Assembly (NCBI GenBank): GCA_042217555.1
Contig: JBDGSL010000022.1
Location: 1 to 27,839, forward strand
Origin: Candidatus Nanohalobium sp.
GTDB taxonomy: Archaea; Nanohalarchaeota; Nanosalinia; Nanosalinales; Nanosalinaceae
Direction: 5' to 3'
Length of the DNA: 27,839 bases
This document shows positions 10,323-25,828 of the stretch, piece after piece (the stretch's first letter is position 1; every line of letters starts with the position of its first letter). Made by a program: the position numbers and the translations under genes. Below the pieces are notes generated by a model, which made no database searches, was not told the DNA's origin, and was given only the letters and a program-made list of their open reading frames with translations.

Positions 10323-10385
10323 AGAAAACGTTTCTACAGTTAAGTATTAACACTTTTTCCCTTTTTGATTTAGAAAGCAAGAAAA

Positions 10386-10886
10386 GTCCCTTCTGGAGAG
10401 AAAAAAGGTTTTCCGGGCGTTCTACAGGCTTCCAGTAAAGGGACTTTGAGAGGTATTCCCGGGAAAAAAGGGGGGGGGAAGGGGAGTGTTCTGATTTTTT
10501 CTCCGGGAAACCACTTCTGTAGTCCACTGGAAAACCTACTTGCCCGTCCATTCTCTCCAGATGGGACCGTTGAAATATCTGTTTTTAAGGATTTTGGAGG
10601 AGTCCCGGCGGAACACAAAAGGGGGGGAGGGGAGTTTTTTGTCTTCGCCCGGACTCCTCCTAACATGACGACGAAAGCCGGAGACTTTCTGGAGTCGAAG
10701 ACTTCTCAGTCTTCTGTGCCGAGAAACCTGTCAAGGTTTCGGCCCAGGAAAATCTCCGATTTTCGTACTTTTCAGGCCCTTGCAGGACCTCTTTGAAGCC
10801 TAAGGCTTCCATTGGTGGAAAATCCTTTCCGGATTTTCTGTTAAGCAGGAGACCTCCGATCTTCAGTTTTTTCGAAATTTGGAGGC
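10386..10886 (-). ncRNA. Candidate structured RNA or long ftsZ 3' trailer (alternatively a replication-origin-like region)
   Basis: Non-coding and densely palindromic. Two long stems with homologous polypurine/polypyrimidine loops (10386-10567, 10596-10660) are followed by at least 7 short hairpins, one with a GAGA tetraloop on the minus strand. Confidence 0.5.
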
Positions 10887-10894
10887 TTTCTAGT

Positions 10895-11962
10895 TTACTT
10901 CATGACTTCAAGTCCGAGGTCGTTGACGTCTCCTTCTACCTGGGTTTCTTCTGATTCGTCCAGGTCTCCGAGGACGTAAGGGCTCTCGACTCCTGTGATG
11001 ATGGAGATGACCTGCAGTTTGCCCTGAAGTTCTTCCTTCACTCGTGCACCCCAGATTGTCTGTGCCTGGCTGTCAAGCTTTTTCTTGACGTGCTGGCCGA
11101 CCTCGTTGATCTCGTTCAGGGTCAGGTCGTTGCCTCCTGCTACGTGAAGCAGTGCTCCGTTTGCACCGTCGAAGTTGACGTCGAGCAAGGGGTTGGAGAG
11201 TGCTTCGTGGATCGCTTCTTGGCCCTTGTTGTTCGTGTCTGACTCTCCGTATCCTACTACTGCGACTCCTCCATCGTTCATGATGGCCTGTACATCGGCG
11301 TAGTCCAGGTTGACGAGCGAAGGTTTGCTGATTGTCTCCGTGATTCCTTTGATCATCGTGGTGATCAGTTCGTCTGCGACTCCGAACGCCTGGTCGAGTG
11401 GCATGTCGCCTGCGATGTCAAGTAGTTTGTCGTTTTCGATTACGATTGCCGTGTCGACGTGCTGCCTGAGCTGGTAGAGTCCGTCCTCTGCCTTGGACAT
11501 TCTTGCGCCTTCGATCTCGAAAGGCATTGTCACTGTTCCGATTACGATGCAGTCCTCTTTCTTTGCGATCTCGGCCAGTACAGGTGAAACACCTGTGCCT
11601 GTACCTCCTCCGAGTCCTGCCGTCAGGAATACCATGTCGGCGTCCTTGAACAGGTTACGCAGTTCCGCTCTGTTCTCTTCTGCTGCACGTGCACCTTTCT
11701 CCGGTTCTCCACCGGCTCCAAGCCCACGGGTAAGATCTTTACCCACCAGTATCTTCCTGTCGGCCGATGACATCTCTAGGTGCTGCTTGTCGGTGTTGAT
11801 CGCGACTGTTTCAGCTCCCTCCACATCCTTGTTCTGGATACGGGTAACCTGGTTGTTTCCAGCACCTCCAGCACCAACCACCAGGATCTTGGCATCTTTC
11901 ACATCATCAAGGTTTTCCGAGGTTTTGCCGTCGTCTTCTGCGTTGTCAATTATAGATTCCAT
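10895..11962 (-). CDS. ftsZ: Cell division protein FtsZ
   Basis: GAGGAGNN, GLGAGG.PE.G, tubulin signature GGGTGTG, T7 loop VNLDYADV. Confidence 0.99.
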   Translation of the reverse strand: MESIIDNAEDDGKTSENLDDVKDAKILVVGAGGAGNNQVTRIQNKDVEGAETVAINTDKQHLEMSSADRKILVGKDLTRGLGAGGEPEKGARAAEENRAELRNLFKDADMVFLTAGLGGGTGTGVSPVLAEIAKKEDCIVIGTVTMPFEIEGARMSKAEDGLYQLRQHVDTAIVIENDKLLDIAGDMPLDQAFGVADELITTMIKGITETISKPSLVNLDYADVQAIMNDGGVAVVGYGESDTNNKGQEAIHEALSNPLLDVNFDGANGALLHVAGGNDLTLNEINEVGQHVKKKLDSQAQTIWGARVKEELQGKLQVISIITGVESPYVLGDLDESEETQVEGDVNDLGLEVMK

Positions 11963-16513: not shown

Positions 16514-16855
16514 TGGGGGTGGTAGGATTTGAACCCACAACCTACCGCTTTCTCCGGGAACTTCTGAAAGTTCCATCATCAGAAGCCATGACAAGCATGG
16601 CTTACAGGGATGTAATCATCGGAACACGAAGATCCGAAAGATCTTCTCGAACTGACACGCAGAAGCGAGCCAGTGTTCCTCATCCCTCCAGTTCGCGTAA
16701 CAGGGTAAGAGATGGTTCCTGAGAACCATCAGGTACTGTCGACCTGCTCCAAACCACGTTGCGGTTTGTGTGAATCCAGAAAATCCTTCTCAGGATTTTC
16801 GTCTGCTACGGTAGTCGCTGGAGGCGGTCGCTCTCCCAGGTTGAGCTACACCCCC
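16514..16855 (-). tRNA. tRNA-Trp(CCA) with a 268-nt intron at 37/38 (intron 16550-16817)
   Basis: Acceptor GGGGGTG/CACCCCC+A, anticodon stem ACCGC/GCGGT with loop CT-CCA-G|A, T arm GTGGG-TTCAAAT-CCTAC. BHB-like junction with a CTCC/GGAG central helix. CCA not encoded. Confidence 0.95.
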
Positions 16856-16903
16856 TCTCTCTTTCTTTTTTTCTTCCTGTGTTTGTGGAGTTGTTGGCTA
16901 GTT

Positions 16904-18133
16904 TTATATTATGTTGATTGTCTGGTCTGTGATTTTGTATGTGGTTGCTGTTGCCATGATTAGGATTCCGGCGATGGTGAGTGGCATTGATGGTGTGGCG
17001 ATGGCTGCTGTGATTCCTGAGAGCATGCTGGGGAATGCGTTTCCGAGCGCTCTGATGCTTTGGTTGGTGCCGAGTGCGAGACCCTGGTTTTTTTCACTGG
17101 CTTTGTTTGAGACCAGTGTGTTTAGGCTGATCTGTGTTATGGAGTTGTTGAATGAGAACAGTGTTACTACTGCCATGAATGCTGTCAGGGAGTTTGGTAT
17201 GGGTTGGAGGAAGATGAAGAGTCCTGTGAGGAAGAGTGTTATCGGCATGACGTTTTCTTCCCTGTATCTGGTGAACAGTTGCGGAACTATGATTCCCTGG
17301 CCTATTATAAGCAGTATTCCGATGTAGAGGAAGAAGTTACCGGTTTGGAACTGTGTGAATCCGAAGTTTTTGACGAGGTAGACCGGTATGAAGGTTGTGA
17401 AGAATGCAAAACCTGAGAAGTAGAAGAAGTTGGCGGTGAAAAGCTTTTTCAGGCCTGGAAGTGTCAGTCCTTTCTTTAACTGGGTTAATGGTTTCAACCA
17501 GTCTATATGCTTGTCTTCCATTGGACTGGTCTCCTTGAGTGAAATCCTTACGTATACAAGTGAAAGTGCTGAAAGCAGGGCTGCGAACCAGAATGGGAAT
17601 GAGGCGGAGAAGAAGGGTAGGAAGTCGGATGACAGGAATCCTCCGAGGAAAGGCCCCAGGATAAAGCCTATTCCGTATGCCATGCCTATTATACCGAAGT
17701 TTTTGGACTTGTTGCTGTCTTCCGTCACGTCTGCGATAGTTGCCTGGGCTACAGAGATAAGGCCTCCTGTTAGACCGTTGACTATCCGGGAAATGAATAG
17801 GACTGCTATGTTACCCAGGGTTATGCCTACTGCGAATATAACAGATGCCAGTACTGTTCCCAGTATCGAGATCTGTATGGTCTTTCTTCTCCCGTATATG
17901 TCGCTTATTTCGCCGAGTATAGGGGTAGAAACAAACTGTGAAAGCGGGTAAAGACCTATCAGCAGTCCTAACAGTATGTATCCGGTCTGTATGGACAGGT
18001 TTTCTGGAAGCATGAAGAACCCTGAACCGGGCTCTGTCAGGAGAAGAGGTACTATAGGAAGCAGTATACCGAAGCTTATAACCTCTGCAACGATAGTAGG
18101 GAAAAGGGTACGGATAACTTTTGAACTACTCAT
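16904..18133 (-). CDS. MFS transporter, DHA1/TetA-like
   Basis: About 12 TMs, motif A GEISDIYGRRK, motif C GFILGPFLGG. ATG at 18133 preferred over TTG at 18154. Confidence 0.92.
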   Translation of the reverse strand: MSSSKVIRTLFPTIVAEVISFGILLPIVPLLLTEPGSGFFMLPENLSIQTGYILLGLLIGLYPLSQFVSTPILGEISDIYGRRKTIQISILGTVLASVIFAVGITLGNIAVLFISRIVNGLTGGLISVAQATIADVTEDSNKSKNFGIIGMAYGIGFILGPFLGGFLSSDFLPFFSASFPFWFAALLSALSLVYVRISLKETSPMEDKHIDWLKPLTQLKKGLTLPGLKKLFTANFFYFSGFAFFTTFIPVYLVKNFGFTQFQTGNFFLYIGILLIIGQGIIVPQLFTRYREENVMPITLFLTGLFIFLQPIPNSLTAFMAVVTLFSFNNSITQISLNTLVSNKASEKNQGLALGTNQSIRALGNAFPSMLSGITAAIATPSMPLTIAGILIMATATTYKITDQTINII

Positions 18134-18215
18134 GGAAAACAGGTTCTCCCACAAGTTATTTCAAACCGGCGAGAAACATAAAAACCGATTTAAAAACTGG
18201 AGCCAATCACCTGGT

Positions 18216-19178
18216 GTGAAGATAACGGAAAAAGACGGGATACACATACACGGCGAGAAAAAGGTTGTGGCTGACTCAAGAAACAGTAAGGGAGATATCA
18301 ACTTTGTTTCCCACGCACACTTCGATCACATGCACCGGTCGGACACAAAGGTGGTGGCCTCAGAGCTTACAGCAAAGCTGGCCGAAGCCCGTTCAGATGA
18401 AACGGTGCAGAGGACGGAATCAGAGAATTTAGAGCTTATCCCGTCTGGACACATACTTGGAAGTTCCTCGGCGTTGATCAAAGGTGAGGAAGATGTTCTC
18501 TACACAGGCGATGTATCACTAAGGGATAGAGTGTATCTTGATGGATTTAAACCGGTTTCTGCAGATATACTGGTAGTTGAGTCAACTTACGGTATACCGG
18601 CGTACAGGTTCCCTGAGCAACAAGTTATAGAAAACAGGATAAAGGACTTTATCCGGGATGAGGACTCTCCTCTGATCCTGTTCGGCTACTCTCTCGGTAA
18701 GGCTCAGAAGATACAGAAACTTGTCGAAGAAGCTACAGAAAGACCGGTCCTGGCGCATGAATCCGTCAAGAAGATGAACGATGTGGTAGAAGAAGCCACA
18801 GACATGAATTTCTCCGCTATTCCCTACGGAGAAAACAAGGAGCTGATGGAAGAAAATGGTATTCTGATAGCACCTTCAAGAAGCTCACAGAGTAACTGGG
18901 TTGAAAAACTTGTAGGTAAAACAGGTGCGGTCAAGGCCGGGTTCTCAGGATGGGCAACCACAGAATCGTTCAAGTACCGTGGAGGATACGACGAAACGTT
19001 CCAGTTGTCTGACCACTGCGACTTCGATGGACTGGTGGAACTTGTCGAGAAGGTTGACCCGGAAAAAGTCTACGTCCAGCACGGCTTCGACGAGGAGTTC
19101 GCATCATACCTGAAGAAGGAGAAAGGGTTTAACGCCCGTGCCCTGAAGAAGAATCAAAGCAGCCTCACAGATTTCTAG
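18216..19178 (+). CDS. Metallo-beta-lactamase/beta-CASP nuclease (COG1236-like) with C-terminal PIP box
   Basis: SHAHFDH, GHILGS, YTGD, VESTYG, YSLGKAQ, SGW, LSDHCD, HG motifs; ends QSSLTDF. GTG at 18216 with TTTAAAAA about 25 nt upstream. Confidence 0.9.
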   Translation: MKITEKDGIHIHGEKKVVADSRNSKGDINFVSHAHFDHMHRSDTKVVASELTAKLAEARSDETVQRTESENLELIPSGHILGSSSALIKGEEDVLYTGDVSLRDRVYLDGFKPVSADILVVESTYGIPAYRFPEQQVIENRIKDFIRDEDSPLILFGYSLGKAQKIQKLVEEATERPVLAHESVKKMNDVVEEATDMNFSAIPYGENKELMEENGILIAPSRSSQSNWVEKLVGKTGAVKAGFSGWATTESFKYRGGYDETFQLSDHCDFDGLVELVEKVDPEKVYVQHGFDEEFASYLKKEKGFNARALKKNQSSLTDF

Positions 19179-19813
19179 AAGTCCTCGGCCTTCATCTCCT
19201 TCTCCATCCGACGTACCGTCTCTTTATGCCTCTCCAGTCTTTCCCGGGCGACTTCCTCTGACCTCTGGAAGTGCAGTTCTTCGATCTGATCCTCGAACTC
19301 ATCCACTGCTGTATCCCAGAAGTACTCGATGCTCTCCCAGAACCCGCGGACGTGTTGACAGGAGTAATGTATCTGCCGCCAGAGATTACTGACCCCAAAG
19401 TTTGACACTTTGTCAGCGTCCTGCACAATCCTTCCTTCAGCAGTCTCCGGTTCTGAGTGATGGTTAAGTATAATTTCCCTGATCTTTTCCAGCTGTTCAT
19501 CTGTCACGAAATCTGAAACGTATTCTCCTACTATCCTGGCACCTCTCTCCGCATGGCCTTCATGGCCTTCAAACAGATCCATCTCACCGTCTTCAATATC
19601 TTCAGAACGGCCGATATCGTGGTACAGAGCAGATATCTCCAGAACCTTTCTGTCGACCTCTACATCCGGTTCGCCGGCCAGCTTACAGACCATTTTATGG
19701 ACGGTTTCCAGGTGTGTGAAACGGTAGTTCTTCCCGCCCGCGGTTTCAGTATAGTTAGAGAACTCTTCCCTCAGTCTTGACTTCAATTCCTCTAGCTCGG
19801 AATCCTTCAGCAT
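19175..19813 (-). CDS. HD-domain phosphohydrolase
   Basis: H...ALYHDIGR...HAERGA...ILNHH...VQDADK. Confidence 0.92.
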   Translation of the reverse strand: MLKDSELEELKSRLREEFSNYTETAGGKNYRFTHLETVHKMVCKLAGEPDVEVDRKVLEISALYHDIGRSEDIEDGEMDLFEGHEGHAERGARIVGEYVSDFVTDEQLEKIREIILNHHSEPETAEGRIVQDADKVSNFGVSNLWRQIHYSCQHVRGFWESIEYFWDTAVDEFEDQIEELHFQRSEEVARERLERHKETVRRMEKEMKAEDF

Positions 19814-19845
19814 GTGGAATTATTGGGTGGAAGTTTCTTTGAGTT

Positions 19846-20271
19846 TTACGGGTCAAAGAACAGATCATCCATCGCGGCGTCCACAAACTTCTCTTCTCTG
19901 TCCTTAAAAAGCGGTCTTACGTCCTCAACAGCTCTCCTGTCTTTTGAGGTTAGCTGGGCGCCGAACTCTTTCCTGGCTGATCTGACTACGTCTATGTCTT
20001 TCTGTAGTCTCCTTGATATCTCCCTTGCTTCTTCTTTTCCGTGCTGATCGAAGTCTGTCAGTACTACGACTTTTTCTGTGGAGCGTGTTATGTCTTCGCA
20101 GAGGTCGTCGTGTGTTCTTTCCGCTGAGAGAAATATTTTTCCTTTGAAGCCAAGTTTCTGAAGCATTTTTTTGTCAGCCCAGCCCTCTACTACTGCTGCG
20201 TCCACATCACCTGAAATCTTCTTGACGATTTTTTCCAATCTTTTCTTCTCAATGTAGTCCTGTCTTTTCAT
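19846..20271 (-). CDS. Stand-alone TOPRIM-domain protein (small primase-like/RNase M5-like)
   Basis: VVEGWADK and VLTDFDQHG TOPRIM motifs. Confidence 0.88.
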   Translation of the reverse strand: MKRQDYIEKKRLEKIVKKISGDVDAAVVEGWADKKMLQKLGFKGKIFLSAERTHDDLCEDITRSTEKVVVLTDFDQHGKEEAREISRRLQKDIDVVRSARKEFGAQLTSKDRRAVEDVRPLFKDREEKFVDAAMDDLFFDP

Positions 20272-21500
20272 TTTTCCGTAAGTTCTGCTATCTTCCTGCT
20301 GTATACAGGGTTTACAGATGAGTGGAAAATATTTTTAACTGTCTGGCTGTATTCCCGGAAGTTTTCTCTTCTCCTGTGTTTTATCTCCAGGTTTTCCCCT
20401 ACTTCTATGACGTGTTTCCATGTCCTGTCCTCAAGCTCTCCCAGTTCTTTACGTGTATTCATATTTCTCTCCTTTATCCTTGAAGCAGCTTCCTCATTCA
20501 GGTAGGCAGTTACCTCGTGTTTCACGTCCCTCTCTGATTTCACTGTAAGCCGGAACTCCAGTTCCGGAGAGACAAGTTCTATAACTCCGTCCCTGTAGTT
20601 TTTCTCCACTTGCAGCCGGGGATGGAACAGTTCTGCTACCTGTTCAGGTGAAAGTATCCCCATGGCGTCCCGAAGTTTTTCCTTGAACTCTTCAGGTCTA
20701 CACGTGAAGTCCGAGTCCACGTCAAAGCTGTGGATGGATACATAGTACGCGTCCTGCTCTATCTTTTCCTCCAGCTGCCTGGCCCTTCTCTCCGCTTTCC
20801 GGGCTTCTTCCGCCGAGTAAGGTACATCAACGAGAAATACGCCGTCCCGCATGCTGTGCTGGAGAACGGCGTCCGAAGGAGGTGAGAACTCGAGGGAGCT
20901 GAAGGGAGGAGTGTAGAGCTTGAGACTCAGGAACTCCTCCTCAAGCTCTTCCAGGTCTGAATGAACTTTCTCCAGTCTCCGGCGGAAAGGCCTCAGTGAA
21001 CGGTTTAAAAGCCGGGCCTGGCTCTGTGAAAGCTCTTTTCTCTCCGCCATCTTCGCCACGTCCCGGACTATCCTGTTGGTATCATTGTATATCAGTTCTT
21101 TCTGAAGGAACTGGTGCGCTCTCCTGAAAGCAACGGTTTCAAACTCTGAAGCTGCCTCTTCTAAAGTTATGAAGATCCCTCTCAGCTCATGTTCTGAAAG
21201 CTCGGAAAGTTCGAGTCCGACGTCGACAGGGTTGCGTTCGACCTGGCTGATGTATTTTTCCATACGTTTCTCGTCCTCACTGTCTATACTTCCTTTGTTC
21301 TTAGCGTCCAGCACCCAGATCTCCTTTTTTTCCTCTCTCGTAATGCGTGCAAAGGCGTCAGGCCTTGAATTGTCGCTGAGAGACCCCACTCTCTCAAAGA
21401 AGTCGAAGAAGCCTTCATACTGGCGTACAAGGTCAAGTACGTCTGTCTGGAAGACCTTCCAATCTCTGTTTATTCTTCGACCGTTTTTCTTCTCAGACAT
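20268..21500 (-). CDS. Hypothetical protein with N-terminal PD-(D/E)xK-like nuclease domain
   Basis: WKVFQ...RPDAFAR...VLDAKNK resembles the Mrr-like restriction-endonuclease fold. Overlaps the neighbouring genes, suggesting an operon. Confidence 0.55.
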   Translation of the reverse strand: MSEKKNGRRINRDWKVFQTDVLDLVRQYEGFFDFFERVGSLSDNSRPDAFARITREEKKEIWVLDAKNKGSIDSEDEKRMEKYISQVERNPVDVGLELSELSEHELRGIFITLEEAASEFETVAFRRAHQFLQKELIYNDTNRIVRDVAKMAERKELSQSQARLLNRSLRPFRRRLEKVHSDLEELEEEFLSLKLYTPPFSSLEFSPPSDAVLQHSMRDGVFLVDVPYSAEEARKAERRARQLEEKIEQDAYYVSIHSFDVDSDFTCRPEEFKEKLRDAMGILSPEQVAELFHPRLQVEKNYRDGVIELVSPELEFRLTVKSERDVKHEVTAYLNEEAASRIKERNMNTRKELGELEDRTWKHVIEVGENLEIKHRRRENFREYSQTVKNIFHSSVNPVYSRKIAELTEK

Positions 21501-22404
21501 TTTTCTCCATCACCCTGTACTCATCTATCTCTCCGTCGCTGTTTAAATCCAGTCCCTTCACCACTGCGTAGAACCGGCCTCCCTCGTAACCTTCTACTAG
21601 CTGTTCCAGGTCTGAAAACGCTTTTACAGCCGCTCTGGTACCCTTGCTCTGTACTCCTGCGACAAGAAACAGGCTTTCACTCCTGTTTTGAGGGTTAGGT
21701 GTCTTCGCAACCACACCTATCTCTCCCGAGCCGTAACTGTTTTCAGGAGTCCTCAACTCTCTGTAAGGGAACTTATCGCTGGGAAAGTACGCAGGAAAGC
21801 TCTCATTGAACTCCTTCGCCACCACATTGGTAAGTACGCCGCCCAGAAGAAGCAGAGACCTGTCAAACAGTTCCTTCTTCACTATCTCGGTGTCAAGAAG
21901 CACGACGTCGCTGTTTCGCCTGGAGTAGTTTCCCAGCTTGAAAGCTATCTCCGAGGCAAGATGTCCGTCACGCGCCCGTACCTGGTCAGGGCCGTGCTGA
22001 TCCGGAGAACCCGCTACAACATGCCCGTTCATCTCCTTCTCACGTACCAGAGGCCGGAGAAAACTTACAGCGTCACTGTTACTCTCCGGTACGGGAAACT
22101 CCTCGCTGTCTCCATCCAGGTCAAGCACATAGGCATCCTCCGAAGGCCTGTAATAGGTTGCCTCACCGCCTGAAATCTGTGAACTGCTGTCTTTCTCCAC
22201 CAGTCCTGCATCCTCCATCTTCCGGAAATGATAGTAGATCTTCTGCCTGTCACATCCAAGTTTTTCAGCAATTTCAGCAGGATAAGAAGGATTCTCAGCC
22301 AGCTCTTCCAGTATATCTGCCCTTAAAGGCGTTAAAACAGATAACTGCTTGTCGGAAAGCCTTTCGGCCTCCACTATGCTACCATCTCTCACAAAACCTT
22401 CCAT
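21493..22404 (-). CDS. ArsR-like HTH transcriptional regulator with C-terminal alpha/beta domain
   Basis: PLRADILEELAENPSYPAEIAEKLG..RQKIYYHFRKMEDAGLV winged HTH; C-terminal LLLLGG..TN and VAG...GT.AA. Confidence 0.8.
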   Translation of the reverse strand: MEGFVRDGSIVEAERLSDKQLSVLTPLRADILEELAENPSYPAEIAEKLGCDRQKIYYHFRKMEDAGLVEKDSSSQISGGEATYYRPSEDAYVLDLDGDSEEFPVPESNSDAVSFLRPLVREKEMNGHVVAGSPDQHGPDQVRARDGHLASEIAFKLGNYSRRNSDVVLLDTEIVKKELFDRSLLLLGGVLTNVVAKEFNESFPAYFPSDKFPYRELRTPENSYGSGEIGVVAKTPNPQNRSESLFLVAGVQSKGTRAAVKAFSDLEQLVEGYEGGRFYAVVKGLDLNSDGEIDEYRVMEKNV

Positions 22405-22563
22405 TGTAACAAGTTTTTAACAGGACTTATAAATAAGTCCAGGTGTTTTTCTTTTCACCTATTTTTCCCTGTGTTAAGAAAGACTGTTGTAAAGTATTTT
22501 TTACAGGATTGGTGTGTTTGCAGATGGCTTTTAAGATGGTGGAGTGCGTACAGTTGTCTAGTT

Positions 22564-24294
22564 ATGTGCGGAATCGTAGGCTACAAGGGAGAAGGCGATG
22601 CATCGGAGATAGTTTTCAAAGGACTGAAGAAGCTTGAGTACAGAGGCTATGACTCGGCAGGCATAGCAACTGCCAGAGAGTCTTCCGTACAGGTAGAGAA
22701 AGGAGAAGGCACTATCGACGAGGTATCTCCCGAGCCACGTGAAAGCCAGGCAGGCATAGGACACACCCGCTGGGCCACACATGGAGGAGTAAACGATACG
22801 AACGCACATCCGCACACTGACTGCAGCGAAGATATTGCAGTCGTACACAACGGGATAATAAACAACTACGAGGAACTACGGCAGGAGCTTGAGAGGAAAG
22901 ACCACAGCTTTAAATCGGAGACGGATACAGAAGTCATCCCTCACCTTATGGAGGAAGCAGTGGACGATGAGAAAACTCTGGAGGCAGCAGCTCAGAGAGT
23001 GGCTGACAGGCTTCAGGGCTCCTACGCTGTCGTGGCGGCTTTCTCCACCGGCGACATAGTAGCGTTCAAGAACGAGTCTCCGCTCGTGATAGGGGTTGGA
23101 GAGGAAGAGAACTTTCTGGCCTCCGATGTCACACCATTCCTTGAACACACCGATGAAGCAATCTTCCTGGAGGACGGAGAGACAGCAGTACTTAATGGAG
23201 AACTGAAGATATTCCACGAAGGAAAACAGGTAGATAAAAAACCGGAGAAGATCGACTGGGACGCAGAACAGGCCTCCAAGGAGGGACACAACCACTTTAT
23301 GGAGAAAGAAATCAAGGAACAGAGCCAGACAGTTAAAAGGGCAGCATTCCAGGACCGTTCAGACATGGTAAAAGCCGTAAAAATGGTTGAAGAAGCGGAA
23401 AACGTCTACCTGACAGGATGTGGGACAGCAAGCTTTGCATCCAGCCTCGGAGCCAAGTACCTGAGAGATACAGGGATCAAAACTATCTCGGAACAGGCCC
23501 ACGAACTTGAGTACAGAGCCGACGAGATAGGAGAAGAAGACCTGGTCATAGCTGTAAGCCAGTCAGGAGAAACAGCAGATCTTCTCTCAATGCTGAAAAA
23601 AGTGGATGCACCGGTACTTGCAGTAGTAAACGTCGTCGGATCAACTCTTGCAAGAAAATCAGACCACAAAATCTTTGTCAACGCCGGTCCGGAGATCGGA
23701 GTAGCATCCACGAAAGCGTTTACAGCACAGGTAACAGCCCTCAAACTTTTGAAATACACGCTTCAACACAGACTGGAAAAAGGCCGCAAAACACTTGTAG
23801 AAACAGCAGACAAGATAGAAAAAGTGCTGGAAGAACAGGAAGAAACCCTGGAAGAGATCAGCGACTACCTGCTGGAGAAAGACCACGTCTTCACCATAGG
23901 CAGGAACAAAGGCCACGAGATGGCGAAAGAGTCCGCACTGAAACTGAAAGAACTCTCCTACATACACGTCGAAGCATTCCCGGGAGGAGAGTTCAAACAT
24001 GGAAACCTGGCGCTTGTAGAAGACGGCGTACCGGTTATAAGCTTCCTGAAAGAAGAAAGCTTCGACGAGATACTGTCCAACACGCTGGAAGCCCATTCAA
24101 GAGGAGCAGACATAATAGGAGTAGGTACAGAAGAACTTGAAAACTTCAAACACTTCATCCGGATACCAGACGACCCCAACCAGGAGATACTGGAAGTGAT
24201 ACCGTTCCAGATGATAGCCTACAGAACATCCATAAAGAAAGGTAACAACCCTGACAAACCCCGCAACCTGGCCAAAAGCGTCACAGTCAAGTAA
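22564..24294 (+). CDS. glmS: Glutamine--fructose-6-phosphate aminotransferase
   Basis: N-terminal MCGIVGY (catalytic Cys1), LEYRGYDSAG, GHTRWATHG, SQSGETAD, VASTKAF, PRNLAKSVTVK. Confidence 0.99.
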   Translation: MCGIVGYKGEGDASEIVFKGLKKLEYRGYDSAGIATARESSVQVEKGEGTIDEVSPEPRESQAGIGHTRWATHGGVNDTNAHPHTDCSEDIAVVHNGIINNYEELRQELERKDHSFKSETDTEVIPHLMEEAVDDEKTLEAAAQRVADRLQGSYAVVAAFSTGDIVAFKNESPLVIGVGEEENFLASDVTPFLEHTDEAIFLEDGETAVLNGELKIFHEGKQVDKKPEKIDWDAEQASKEGHNHFMEKEIKEQSQTVKRAAFQDRSDMVKAVKMVEEAENVYLTGCGTASFASSLGAKYLRDTGIKTISEQAHELEYRADEIGEEDLVIAVSQSGETADLLSMLKKVDAPVLAVVNVVGSTLARKSDHKIFVNAGPEIGVASTKAFTAQVTALKLLKYTLQHRLEKGRKTLVETADKIEKVLEEQEETLEEISDYLLEKDHVFTIGRNKGHEMAKESALKLKELSYIHVEAFPGGEFKHGNLALVEDGVPVISFLKEESFDEILSNTLEAHSRGADIIGVGTEELENFKHFIRIPDDPNQEILEVIPFQMIAYRTSIKKGNNPDKPRNLAKSVTVK

Positions 24295-24359
24295 AAAAGA
24301 AACTTGCTTCTGCAGAACTGTCTACAGATTTTTTAACCTGGCCGGGATAAACTTTACAC

Positions 24360-24803
24360 ATGAAGAAAGCACTCGTACTACTCGTACTTCTCACACCTTC
24401 ACTCGCAGGAGCCGTAACAGAAACAGAACTACAGCAGTTCAAACAGTCCTACAACCAGCAGACAGAACAGGTACCATCCTTCGTCGGCGAAATAGTAGGA
24501 GGAGAGAAGATCAGCTTCAAGATGGAAGTAAACGGAGAAAACCAGACGCTCGGAGTAGCATTTGAAGGAGTGAAGATATCAAACATCACCCGGAAAGAGT
24601 TCGACAAACCCACACTGAAGGTATGGACCCGACAGGAAACAGTTACAGCAGTGATAAACTCCGAAAACTCGTACGCCACACTCCAGCAAAAACTCGACGA
24701 AAAAAAGATACAGTACAAAGCCACAAACATGGAAACAGGCCTGAAAGTCATGATATTCGACACACTGAGAAACCTCGCCGACATGATCGGACTAAACCTC
24801 TGA
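24360..24803 (+). CDS. Secreted hypothetical protein
   Basis: Signal peptide MKKALVLLVLLTPSLAGA; 147-aa ORF. Confidence 0.8.
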   Translation: MKKALVLLVLLTPSLAGAVTETELQQFKQSYNQQTEQVPSFVGEIVGGEKISFKMEVNGENQTLGVAFEGVKISNITRKEFDKPTLKVWTRQETVTAVINSENSYATLQQKLDEKKIQYKATNMETGLKVMIFDTLRNLADMIGLNL

Positions 24804-25379
24804 ACCAGGCTCAACAACCCTGCAGTCAATACTTCGATCCTCCAGCTCGGCCTCAACCCTCCTCACATCCTTCCCCACCTCATCAAAACGGTACGGAACA
24901 ACAAGATCCGGCTTGATACTTACACCCGCCCTCACAGCATCCTCAACACCCATAACACCTCCAACAGGCAAAAACGCCATATCCACACGGTTCTCCAAAT
25001 CCCTCATATCATCAACAAAACCTGTCTCACCAGCCACATAGAAACTCATACCACCCATACTGAAACGATAACCCACACCACGCAAACCACCATCATACGC
25101 AGGAACCGCCTCAATCTCCACACCATAAACATCAATCATCTCACCCGGCCCCAGAAACTCCACATCACGGAAAGAAACATCACCCACAGACCCAGGAAAC
25201 ACAAAAACAGTCCTACCACCATTCAAATCCTCCAAAACCTCAGAATCAAAACCCTTCCCCGTCACAAGCACAAGATCAGCCTCAACATCAACACAGGAAA
25301 CAGGATCAACAACCACAGAAAAACCATCATCCTCAACACAGACACAACCACCCCCCATCCAAGACACATCAAAAACCAC
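24792..25379 (-). CDS. MBL-fold (UPF0173/Lactamase_B_3-like) protein lacking metal-binding His residues
   Basis: VVVDP...ADLVLVT, IEAVPAY, FYVAGETG, DMAFLPVGG, AV..IKP.LVVP scaffold present. HxHxDH is replaced by TGKGFD. Confidence 0.75.
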   Translation of the reverse strand: MVFDVSWMGGGCVCVEDDGFSVVVDPVSCVDVEADLVLVTGKGFDSEVLEDLNGGRTVFVFPGSVGDVSFRDVEFLGPGEMIDVYGVEIEAVPAYDGGLRGVGYRFSMGGMSFYVAGETGFVDDMRDLENRVDMAFLPVGGVMGVEDAVRAGVSIKPDLVVPYRFDEVGKDVRRVEAELEDRSIDCRVVEPGSEV

Positions 25380-25610
25380 AGAAACTCTCCCCCACTACCA
25401 TACAACCCAAAATAAAACACAAAAACAATTAAACACTAACCCCTCTCAACCACCACGGGAATAAAAAACTCACCACCAAAAAACCAAACACACACCAAAA
25501 ACACAGGGGCAGCACAAGAAACTCCTGCCAACCACGCAAATCAAAAGATTTGCTGGAGCAGAAGACATTCAACATCTTCAACCCCGTCAACACACCCCAT
25601 ACCACAAGAT

Positions 25611-25805
25611 GCGGGGGTAGCCAAGTGGTCAAAGGCGCAGGGTTTAGGAACCTTCAGTTTCCAGACGGAAACAAGGACCGAGAAGACGAAAATCCACCAA
25701 TGGATTTTCTCAAAGAAGATTCCGAAGGCAAACTTCGGATCTCTGATCTTCAATTAAAATACCCTGTCGGTTAGCCGTTCGCAGGTTCAAATCCTGTCCC
25801 CCGCA
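25611..25805 (+). tRNA. tRNA-Leu(UAG) with a 112-nt intron at 37/38 (intron 25649-25760)
   Basis: Acceptor GCGGGGG/CCCCCGC+A, anticodon stem CAGGG/CCCTG with loop TT-TAG-G|A, long variable arm CGGTTAGCCG, T arm GCAGG-TTCAAAT-CCTGT. BHB with TTTA/TAAA helix and GGA/ATA bulges. Confidence 0.95.
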
Positions 25806-25828
25806 CTACAGCCTTTCTGTTTAATTCA

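Follow-up and report, generated by a model that had tools for sequence, protein, structure and literature searches.

The subject of this analysis is a 27,839-nucleotide (nt) stretch of DNA from Candidatus Nanohalobium sp. (contig JBDGSL010000022.1 of assembly GCA_042217555.1; hereafter the window), in which the introns of a tRNA-Trp and a tRNA-Leu(UAG) gene carry a stem-loop of the common form AGAC-GAAAAUCC-N6-GGAUUUUC-U. It was found that the two stem-loops are copies of an abundant short hairpin module and not a special Trp/Leu element. They are the most conspicuous representatives of a tRNA-associated class of hairpins found across the phylum, which appears to be undescribed so far and whose function is putative. 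The reading preferred here, to which about an even chance is given, is that of a tolerated self-folding module that has gathered in the removable parts of pre-tRNAs. The two genes and their stem-loops are as follows.

16855-16514, minus strand: tRNA-Trp(CCA) gene, called by ARAGORN with introns allowed, with a 268-nt intron at the canonical 37/38 site.
16804-16778, minus strand: 27-nt stem-loop of the tRNA-Trp intron, reading AGACGAAAATCCTGAGAAGGATTTTCT, that is, AGAC, then GAAAAUCCU-GAGA-AGGAUUUUC, then U.
25611-25806, plus strand: tRNA-Leu(UAG) gene, called by ARAGORN and Rfam (43.8 bits), with a 112-nt intron (25649-25760) at 37/38.
25684-25710, plus strand: 27-nt stem-loop of the tRNA-Leu intron, reading AGACGAAAATCCACCAATGGATTTTCT, that is, AGAC, then GAAAAUCCA-CCAA-UGGAUUUUC, then U.

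A preliminary description of the window had reported these sequences as 22/27 identical, with a 9-bp stem, a 4-nt loop and a conserved 5' AGAC, and all of this was reproduced, coordinates included. The identical positions comprise 21 in the flanks and arms, where the 4-nt 5' flank and the 3' U are the same in both copies, and one of the six in the centre; with so little of the centre shared, the pair is not a recent copy. Both copies fold (Trp -11.3, Leu -9.9 kcal/mol), and none of 200 shuffles folded as stably. The Trp loop, GAGA, is of the GNRA type. Sites for GACGAAAATCC-N6-GGATTTTC number two in the window versus 0.01 expected from shuffles. The closing pair is U-A in the Trp hairpin and A-U in the Leu hairpin, which had been taken for a compensatory change. 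The swap itself is present, but it is seen between paralogous copies with unrelated loops and is not orthologous covariation. Covariation support is not obtainable, because none of the relatives' Trp and Leu introns compared has an orthologous copy at the corresponding position. A downstream GAAGAT...TTCGGATCT stem, also proposed for both introns, was located in each of them (Trp 16648-16627; Leu 25715-25753). The suggestion that the motif matches no existing family was borne out as well: with Rfam release 15, only tRNA reaches the gathering score in the window, the best match of the hairpin itself (b55) scores 18.4 bits versus a gathering score of 70, and the Leu intron has no match.

Both hairpins are intronic (ARAGORN Trp i(37,268), Leu i(39,112)), and both introns lie one base 3' of the anticodon according to ARAGORN and the reading of the exon ends. 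The Trp intron runs from about 16817 to 16550, the boundary being ambiguous by 2 nt from a repeated A/AG. The bulge-helix-bulge (BHB) splice motifs were read by eye: the Trp motif has a central helix CUCC/GGAG with 3-nt bulges AG-C and AA-A, the Leu motif UUUA/UAAA with bulges GG-A and AU-A, and each has a weak outer helix. Logan contigs of run X1 (a salt-lake metagenome, possibly the source sample) match both hairpins base for base.

The window is contig C15 of the source assembly, G000 (1.31 Mb, 88 contigs, 45.8% G+C), which was compared with related genomes (G001, G002, G003 and so on) of 0.5-1.7 Mb. The phylum, as represented in the genome collection, consists of one order with 70 species. 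The G000 proteome is acidic (D+E 17.5% versus K+R 11.6%), and the window DNA occurs in salt-lake and hypersaline metagenomes. Large-subunit rRNA was absent from the searched G000 assembly, and small-subunit rRNA was only partial. When ARAGORN was run without its intron mode, as in a default scan, zero tRNA genes were called within the window; with introns allowed, introns were called in 35 of the 42 tRNA genes of G000, a few of these calls being doubtful. The consequence for annotation is that default tRNA finders overlook such intron-containing genes. For two cultivated nanohaloarchaea, the part of the published account that was available (PMC10266531) gives introns in 15/39 and 4/38 tRNA genes.

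The size of the hairpin class became apparent from counts in G000 and its relatives. In its consensus form, the stem starts GAA(A/G) and ends (U/C)UUC, often as GAAAAUC(C)...(G)GAUUUUC, around a free loop of 3-6 nt. G000 contains 258 perfect GAA..TTC hairpins (stem at least 6 bp), compared with 26-42 in five shuffles, and 66 [G/C]AAAA..TTTT[C/G] hairpins, compared with 0-2 in ten shuffles; among its 660 perfect hairpins with stems of at least 7 bp, 142 start with GAA. The heptamer GAAAATC occurs 187 times, and GATTTTC follows within 3-9 nt after 28 of these, versus 0 for swapped arms and 0-2 for direct repeats. The exact pattern GAAAATC-N3-9-GATTTTC is present in 33/41 relatives and 52/70 phylum genomes, while a reversed control pattern matches in 1/70 only. 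Positive genomes carry 1-28 exact copies, G000 having the most, and some complete genomes, such as G019 (99% complete) and G022 (96% complete), have none. The closed genome G020, from another genus, holds 130 hairpins versus 28-33 in shuffles. The stem sequence is conserved across five families, and the same 17-20-mers, for example GAAAAUCC-GUCA-GGAUUUUC, recur across different families. Within G000, the tRNA-Lys UUU intron carries GAAAAUCC-UUUCGA-GGAUUUUC, and four further introns contain stems of the GAAAAUC or GAAAAC type. The motif thus recurs in other introns and in relatives far beyond chance, in line with the preliminary description. In the open-access literature, nothing was found on this hairpin class or on motifs or palindromes in nanohaloarchaeal tRNA introns. 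A separate scan of genome contigs for ACGAAAATCC-N3-8-GGATTTTCT gave at least 145 stretches; the 80 listed are all bacterial, mostly from Flavobacteriaceae and related Bacteroidota, with no archaeal record among the matches listed. In the listed bacterial records, an unrelated 23-nt hairpin that matches ACGAAAATCC-N-GGATTTTCT recurs, often several times per contig.

The class is concentrated at tRNA genes. Its density in G000 is 2.64 per kb in tRNA genes, 1.98 in their 150-nt flanks and 0.168 in the rest of the genome; the corresponding values in G020 are 1.88, 2.57 and 0.094, so that tRNA genes and flanks are 12-27 times denser than elsewhere. As many as 178 of the 258 copies in G000 lie outside open reading frames (ORFs) of at least 150 amino acids (aa), such ORFs covering 73% of the genome. 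At least one copy is present in 13/35 introns, amounting to 17 copies in 3190 nt, and the remaining copies are found in tRNA flanks, spacer arrays and 5' untranslated regions (UTRs). The idea of an intron-borne family peculiar to Trp and Leu had to be given up, as only these 17 of the 258 wider-class copies are intronic. A role as terminator or 3'-end hairpin was also considered and found unsupported: there is no enrichment after gene 3' ends and no depletion between divergent genes, and the densities per kb in tandem (0.80), divergent (0.62) and convergent (0.64) spacers, based on crude ORF calls, are alike, so that the hairpins are not 3'-end terminators.

One spacer array lies in the window itself.

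10697-10838, strand unassigned: array of 5-6 GAA..UUC hairpins with 7-8-nt linkers, in the spacer after ftsZ (10895-11962, minus strand).

The array includes GAAAAUCC-UUUCC-GGAUUUUC at 10818-10838, and no C or D boxes were found in it. Six hairpins follow ftsZ in G000, four perfect and one imperfect in G002, three in G003 and none in G001. A further conserved element, AUGUUAGGAGGAGUCC ... AAAACACUCCCCUCCCCCC (10560-10666, minus strand), also follows ftsZ; most family members and nearly every genus have it, some in two copies. It shares sequence with the beginning of a 98-aa ORF (10370-10666), has no Rfam match and may be a small conserved gene or, alternatively, a structured RNA. Some of the hairpins form a subclass located 2-5 nt before start codons, whose loop and 3' arm contain a GGAGGUG-like Shine-Dalgarno sequence (G000 C12:91813-93084 and 105504, C2:15755, C28:1017, C74:2558; G020 487883, 605427, 663213 and others). 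The 5' arm of this subclass presumably resembles the 3' tail of 16S rRNA, so that the Shine-Dalgarno site would be paired.

The manner in which the module entered the two introns of the window can be seen from the relatives. The Trp intron was compared with 15 other Trp introns and contains the following parts.

16802-16744, minus strand: 59-nt segment found in G000 only, delimited by comparison with the 15 other Trp introns and by the predicted fold.
16691-16613, minus strand: conserved Trp intron core, box C'/D'-like, defined by sequence comparison.
16648-16627, minus strand: hairpin GA-GAAGAUC-UUUCG-GAUCUUC-G, within the D'-C' linker.
16603-16557, minus strand: 3' module AAGCCAUGC..GCAUGGCUU-CUGAUGAUGG-hairpin, found by BLAST.

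The 59-nt segment consists of the GAAAAUCC hairpin, an 11-nt linker starting UGG (UGGAUUCACAC), a second hairpin AAACCGC-AAC-GUGGUUU and GGAGCAG. In the predicted fold, CGUAGCAG/CUGUUACG close the multiloop in which the segment is situated. GCAG is present at each edge of the segment, which is lacking in the otherwise similar 5' parts of the Trp introns of G021 and G001. Among the 16 Trp introns, only that of G000 has the hairpin at this site; G004 has one elsewhere in its intron.

The core, by comparison, is old. UGGAGG(G/A/U)AUGAG ... AUGAUUA is common to 15/16 Trp introns of the family's tRNA-Trp genes, and the shortest of these introns (55-62 nt) scarcely exceed it, the 268 nt of G000 resulting from added helices. 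In G000, the guide CUGGAGGG with AUGA occupies 16691-16680 and is followed by a linker with hairpins and then by CGAUGAUUA at 16621-16613. The guide CUGGAGG is the exact complement of tRNA C31-G37, and the fifth base before AUGA pairs with C34. As this is the rule for box C/D 2'-O-methylation, the core is predicted to guide 2'-O-methylation of C34. Read from the sequence, AUGA and AUGAUUA could form G-A, A-G and U-U pairs, with U-A replacing G-C. The box pair, AUGA with (C/A)GAUGAUUA, is degenerate (15/16 introns), and the best Rfam C/D match, 17 bits, is below threshold. No clear terminal C and D boxes were found in the G000 Trp intron, nor was a complement to positions 38-43, which a second guide for position 39 would require, found after the C'-like box in G000 or in the relatives' minimal introns. 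At the D'-C' linker position, 6/16 Trp introns have GAAG...CUUC hairpins with differing distal pairs.

The 3' module is common to the tRNA-Arg UCU intron and many loci in relatives according to BLAST. A module of the form GCAUUC..GAAUGC-UAUGKUGAU-hairpin ends the Trp, Met and Arg(UCU) introns directly before the 3' splice site, and the same GCAUUC..GAAUGC module abuts the mature 5' ends of G020 tRNA-Val (91953) and tRNA-Ser(CGA) (700685); it therefore adjoins two kinds of processing site. The 5' part of the G002 Trp intron (GGGACUGGUUACGCUCGGUCCACACGCAAUUAGGCAUUC...) nearly equals the G000 tRNA-Thr(UGU) intron (C73:1-155), a likeness that is a putative module exchange between the introns of different tRNAs across species. 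Beside the tRNA-Trp gene, a 400-aa ORF (17976-19178, plus strand) with an RMMBL domain (Zn-dependent metallo-hydrolase, RNA specificity domain) was noted, and this proximity is probably a coincidence.

The Leu intron belongs to a different family, here called type I, of which it has the two helices.

25651-25676, plus strand: helix H1 of the type I intron, CCUU..GUUUCC-AGAC-GGAAAC..AAGG, from alignment and fold.
25680-25753, plus strand: helix H2 of the type I intron, GA-GAAGA ... UCUUC-AA.

Type I introns were aligned from the Leu, Cys, Arg, Pro, Gln, Thr and Lys tRNAs of four genomes (12 introns). Their layout is NNCCUCAAGUYCUC-loop-GAGRACGAGGAC, about 3 nt, GA, a hairpin beginning GAAG... 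or GAAAAUC..., GA and a short tail. In G000, H2 is expanded by about 60 nt (25687-25746), in which the GAAAAUCC hairpin is accompanied by another one at 25715-25743. In the sister species G002, H2 is a plain hairpin, GAGAAGGC-AGAC-GCCUUCGA, and in G035 and G040, from other families, H2 itself is GAAAAUCC-GUCA-GGAUUUUC. Introns are present in 6 of the 19 tRNA-Leu(UAG) genes read, and three of these six carry the hairpin. Together with the single occurrence at the Trp site, this makes the presence at orthologous sites patchy, in support of the preliminary description. Both intron additions begin alike, AGAC-GAAAAUCC...GGAUUUUC-U, and both copies form separate multiloop arms in the predicted folds. 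As judged from sequence comparison and these folds, the two window copies are lineage-specific additions to older, unrelated introns. The proposed spread by insertion at BHB sites left no sign, as the hairpins sit in an internal junction or loop of the older introns, off the splice site. The pattern is insertion-like; the sister genomes, G001-G003, align to G000 in coding DNA only, at 67-74% identity, and exact mapping of insertions as indels failed due to this divergence.

Sequence sharing between introns is not restricted to the window pair. In G000, nine intron pairs share segments of 14-36 nt at 88-100% identity (BLAST, E up to 0.001). The Trp/Leu pair is not among these nine, and no near-identity of whole introns between different tRNAs was seen within G000. 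Identical hairpins, such as GAAAAUC-UCU-GAUUUUC (four times), have unrelated flanks. The copies therefore share stems but neither loops nor flanks, and no copy-and-paste unit longer than the hairpin can be defined.

Transposases of the IS200/IS605 type were considered as the general driver and rejected. G000 contains one IS200/IS605 element and five further TnpB genes, and similar hairpins occur upstream of tnpA and tnpB (two of those genes). However, the Y1 transposase (PF01797) is found in 3/41 genomes, compared with 33/41 for the hairpin, TnpB exceeds its cut-off in 10/41 with no correlation with hairpin counts, and the hairpin-rich closed genomes G003, G004 and G009 have neither. The abundance of the hairpin is, in other words, independent of TnpA and TnpB.

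A second phenomenon at the tRNA genes of these genomes is the duplication of tRNA ends. The last 16-21 nt of a tRNA are repeated within 260 nt downstream, at a distance of 40-110 nt, in 8/35 tRNAs of G020 and 4/39 of G000. The repeat is preceded by an inverted T-arm copy, UUGCA, a GAAR hairpin and GAA. Such sites include G020 tRNA-Lys(UUU) 728214 and tRNA-Trp 921928, and in G000 C24:2363-2440, C76:1300-1414, C27:61560-61642 and C83:16327-16430. In some cases a T-run directly follows the first tRNA copy, which suggests that the duplicated part may not be transcribed. The first ~15 nt of some tRNA-Leu genes likewise occur a second time, about 50 nt upstream, and a conserved filler, AAUAGCUUGCC...GGCAAGC, separates the two copies (G020 tRNA-Leu(UAG) 248467 and tRNA-Leu(GAG) 931276; G000 C12 upstream of 131675), and a metagenome contig of run X2 has a like duplication at the 5' end of the window tRNA-Leu (25604-25629). 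The duplicated ends may have been left by integrative elements as scars, or a tRNA-targeting process or mini-element may have produced them.

Taken together, a tolerated self-folding module is preferred, at the roughly even chance given above. Such a module would pile up in the discarded or noncoding parts of transcripts, above all tRNA introns and the 150-nt tRNA flanks, and further in spacer arrays and in the stretch just before some start codons. The hairpin would fold by itself once transcribed, and the added sequence would therefore stay sealed off and leave the BHB splice signal undisturbed. The splicing endonuclease would remove it with the intron, and it would thus have no role in the mature tRNA, its own role being neutral or structural. 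New copies would arise at the DNA level, as near-perfect palindromes and independently of an IS200/IS605 transposase. The introns are strongly structured (mean z -3.3; z below -2 in 26/35), their stems are nearly all Watson-Crick (G-U pairs 58/977), and a test for RNA-level selection was null: the sense strand is the more stable in 18/35 introns (Wilcoxon p 0.96).

Several observations weigh against a merely tolerated module. The hairpins have preferred flanks, (C/G)A...GA (49 and 30 of 388 hairpins), and in and downstream of tRNA genes they follow the direction of the tRNA in 30 cases and oppose it in 7; this preference for flank and direction argues for a role in RNA. Stable tetraloops, GAGA (Trp) and UUCG (Lys), are found on the transcribed strand. 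The same stems are found again in genomes whose coding DNA is only about 70% identical, which speaks for selection acting on the sequence, as a binding protein might exert, and not for neutral filler, and the ftsZ array is well conserved between G000 and G002, linkers too. No insertion event was seen directly, and the metagenome contigs revealed no strain without either hairpin and thus no polymorphic insertion. They do contain a co-occurring sister species with G002-type introns, and a scan of metagenome contigs for the Trp exon-intron junction returned 0 matches. Loss in relatives instead of gain in G000 may formally be the case. In addition, the gene calls are crude ORF lists.

Much of this would suit an RNA recognition element, in which a phylum-specific or general protein binds the GAAR...YUUC helix with its purine-purine flanks. 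An L7Ae-type kink-turn binder or another factor would be a candidate, and it would aid the folding, marking or processing of pre-tRNA leaders, introns and trailers and of some 5' UTRs. This explanation is regarded as possible but rather doubtful. Besides the conservation of the stem in five families, the bias with transcription and the GNRA and UUCG loops of the sense strand, it can claim that GA..GA flanks give tandem G-A/A-G pairs beside G-C, like the non-canonical stem of a kink-turn, that the type I hairpin follows helix H1 after ~3 unpaired bases and GA, that the subclass 2-5 nt before start codons has GGAGGUG in its loop and 3' arm, and that the ftsZ array is kept between G000 and G002. 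However, while the tandem G-A feature is found in other class members, including the type I H2 with GA...GA, the two window hairpins have minority flanks, AC...UG (Trp) and AC...UC (Leu), which give no tandem G-A/A-G pairs at the helix base in a kink-turn test, and they are in the minority direction. A recognition element is also at odds with 0-28 copies per genome (none in G019 and G022), with orthologous sites that often are without the hairpin, and with few G-U pairs and no strand asymmetry. The patchiness at orthologous sites would rather fit a mobile or recombination-linked DNA palindrome that targets tRNA genes, comparable to repetitive extragenic palindromic (REP) sequences, a miniature IS200/IS605 derivative or the arm of an attachment site, for which introns would be safe landing places. 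The stems are perfect palindromes, the enrichment at tRNA genes is strong, and the repeated tRNA 3' ends come with the inverted T-arm copy, UUGCA and a GAAR hairpin. The fillers of about 54 nt after the G020 tRNA-Lys and tRNA-Trp are homologous, it is evident from orphan tRNA-Pro 3' ends that these genes are used by integrative elements, and like hairpins stand upstream of tnpA and tnpB in G000. Nevertheless, such an element is considered unlikely, because neither Y1 nor TnpB tracks the hairpin counts, no loops or flanks are shared that would define a copy-and-paste unit, the arm spacing varies between 3 and 9 nt, and no polymorphic insertion was seen in metagenome contigs; in scans of viral contigs, the UUGCA-flanked hairpin pattern from tRNA trailers had 0 matches and the window pattern 6, of unexamined origin. 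Given the minority flanks of the window copies, the tolerated module is ranked first, a protein-binding element second and a tRNA-targeting mobile element third.

A chance or convergent likeness of A/U-rich hairpins in two unrelated introns would be consistent with the unrelated loops (1/6 bases) and with the absence of the pair from the nine BLAST-linked intron pairs. It is nevertheless highly improbable in view of the two window sites versus 0.01 expected, the swapped-arm and direct-repeat controls (0-2 versus 28), and the identical 4-nt 5' flank and 3' U. A bolder proposal, which seems improbable but deserves to be stated, is that the (C/G)A...GA-flanked GAAR...YUUC hairpins are the signature of an undescribed, phylum-specific system on tRNA genes. 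This would be either a protein-recognised RNA mark on removable or processing-adjacent pre-tRNA segments and some mRNAs, or a mini-element that targets tRNA genes. If the latter form were true, its insertion would create or expand introns, duplicate the 3' and 5' ends of tRNAs and drive the interruption of nearly every tRNA gene in some nanohaloarchaea.

Even if the preferred reading is correct and the module is tolerated filler, it still documents an archaeal phylum whose tRNA introns grow by stereotyped helix addition. If it is recognised by a protein or moved by an enzyme, it would offer a way into the long-standing question of how archaeal tRNA genes acquire introns and how these spread. 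Through the strong link with tRNA flanks and the duplicated tRNA ends there, the matter is directly testable in the few existing nanohaloarchaeal co-cultures.

Two known systems outside tRNA introns are comparable. Bacterial REP and palindrome-associated elements are tied to IS200/IS605-type transposases. The present hairpins resemble them as numerous short extragenic palindromes in which the stem is conserved at its base and the distal part varies; they differ in that the transposase is missing from 38/41 genomes and in that the elements are 17-27 nt long, located at tRNA genes and also inside introns. The expansion segments of rRNA grow by insertion of helices into existing helices. As in these segments, self-contained helices have been added at loops and junctions with the older helices intact, whereas here the growth takes place in RNA that is discarded (introns and trailers), and the added helices share a sequence signature.

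Closer parallels are found among archaeal tRNA genes. In Haloferax volcanii and other Euryarchaeota, the tRNA-Trp intron contains a box C/D guide (reviewed in PMC4090602), and the box C/D-like Trp intron of G000 is of this known kind. To the extent that the Haloferax intron is set out in that review, the two have in common the 37/38 site, an anticodon-loop guide and C34 five bases from a D'-type box, and the degenerate box pair of G000 is a putative counterpart of the kink-turn boxes. Unlike it, the G000 intron has a single evident box pair (AUGA/AUGAUUA) with no position-39 guide found, and it is expanded to 268 nt, the 27-nt stem-loop being an addition outside the guide. In Thermoproteales, introns of different tRNAs have sequence in common, which is a precedent for such sharing (work of 2010, known here as summarised in PMC4090602). 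The introns of different tRNAs in G000 similarly share sequence, both in the nine pairs and in the type I architecture. In comparison with that summary, the phylum is another one, a module and not the whole intron is shared, and the hairpin class is abundant outside introns; intron modules common to unrelated tRNAs are here a second case beside Thermoproteales. Finally, Nanoarchaeum equitans has genes for C/D box small RNAs beside and inside tRNA genes, which are suspected to be mobile according to the part of the report available (PMC3491384). Unlike those, the hairpins of G000 are not C/D box RNAs; what the two have in common, as far as that account extends, is a small symbiotic archaeon with small structured RNAs in tRNA introns and adjoining tRNA genes.

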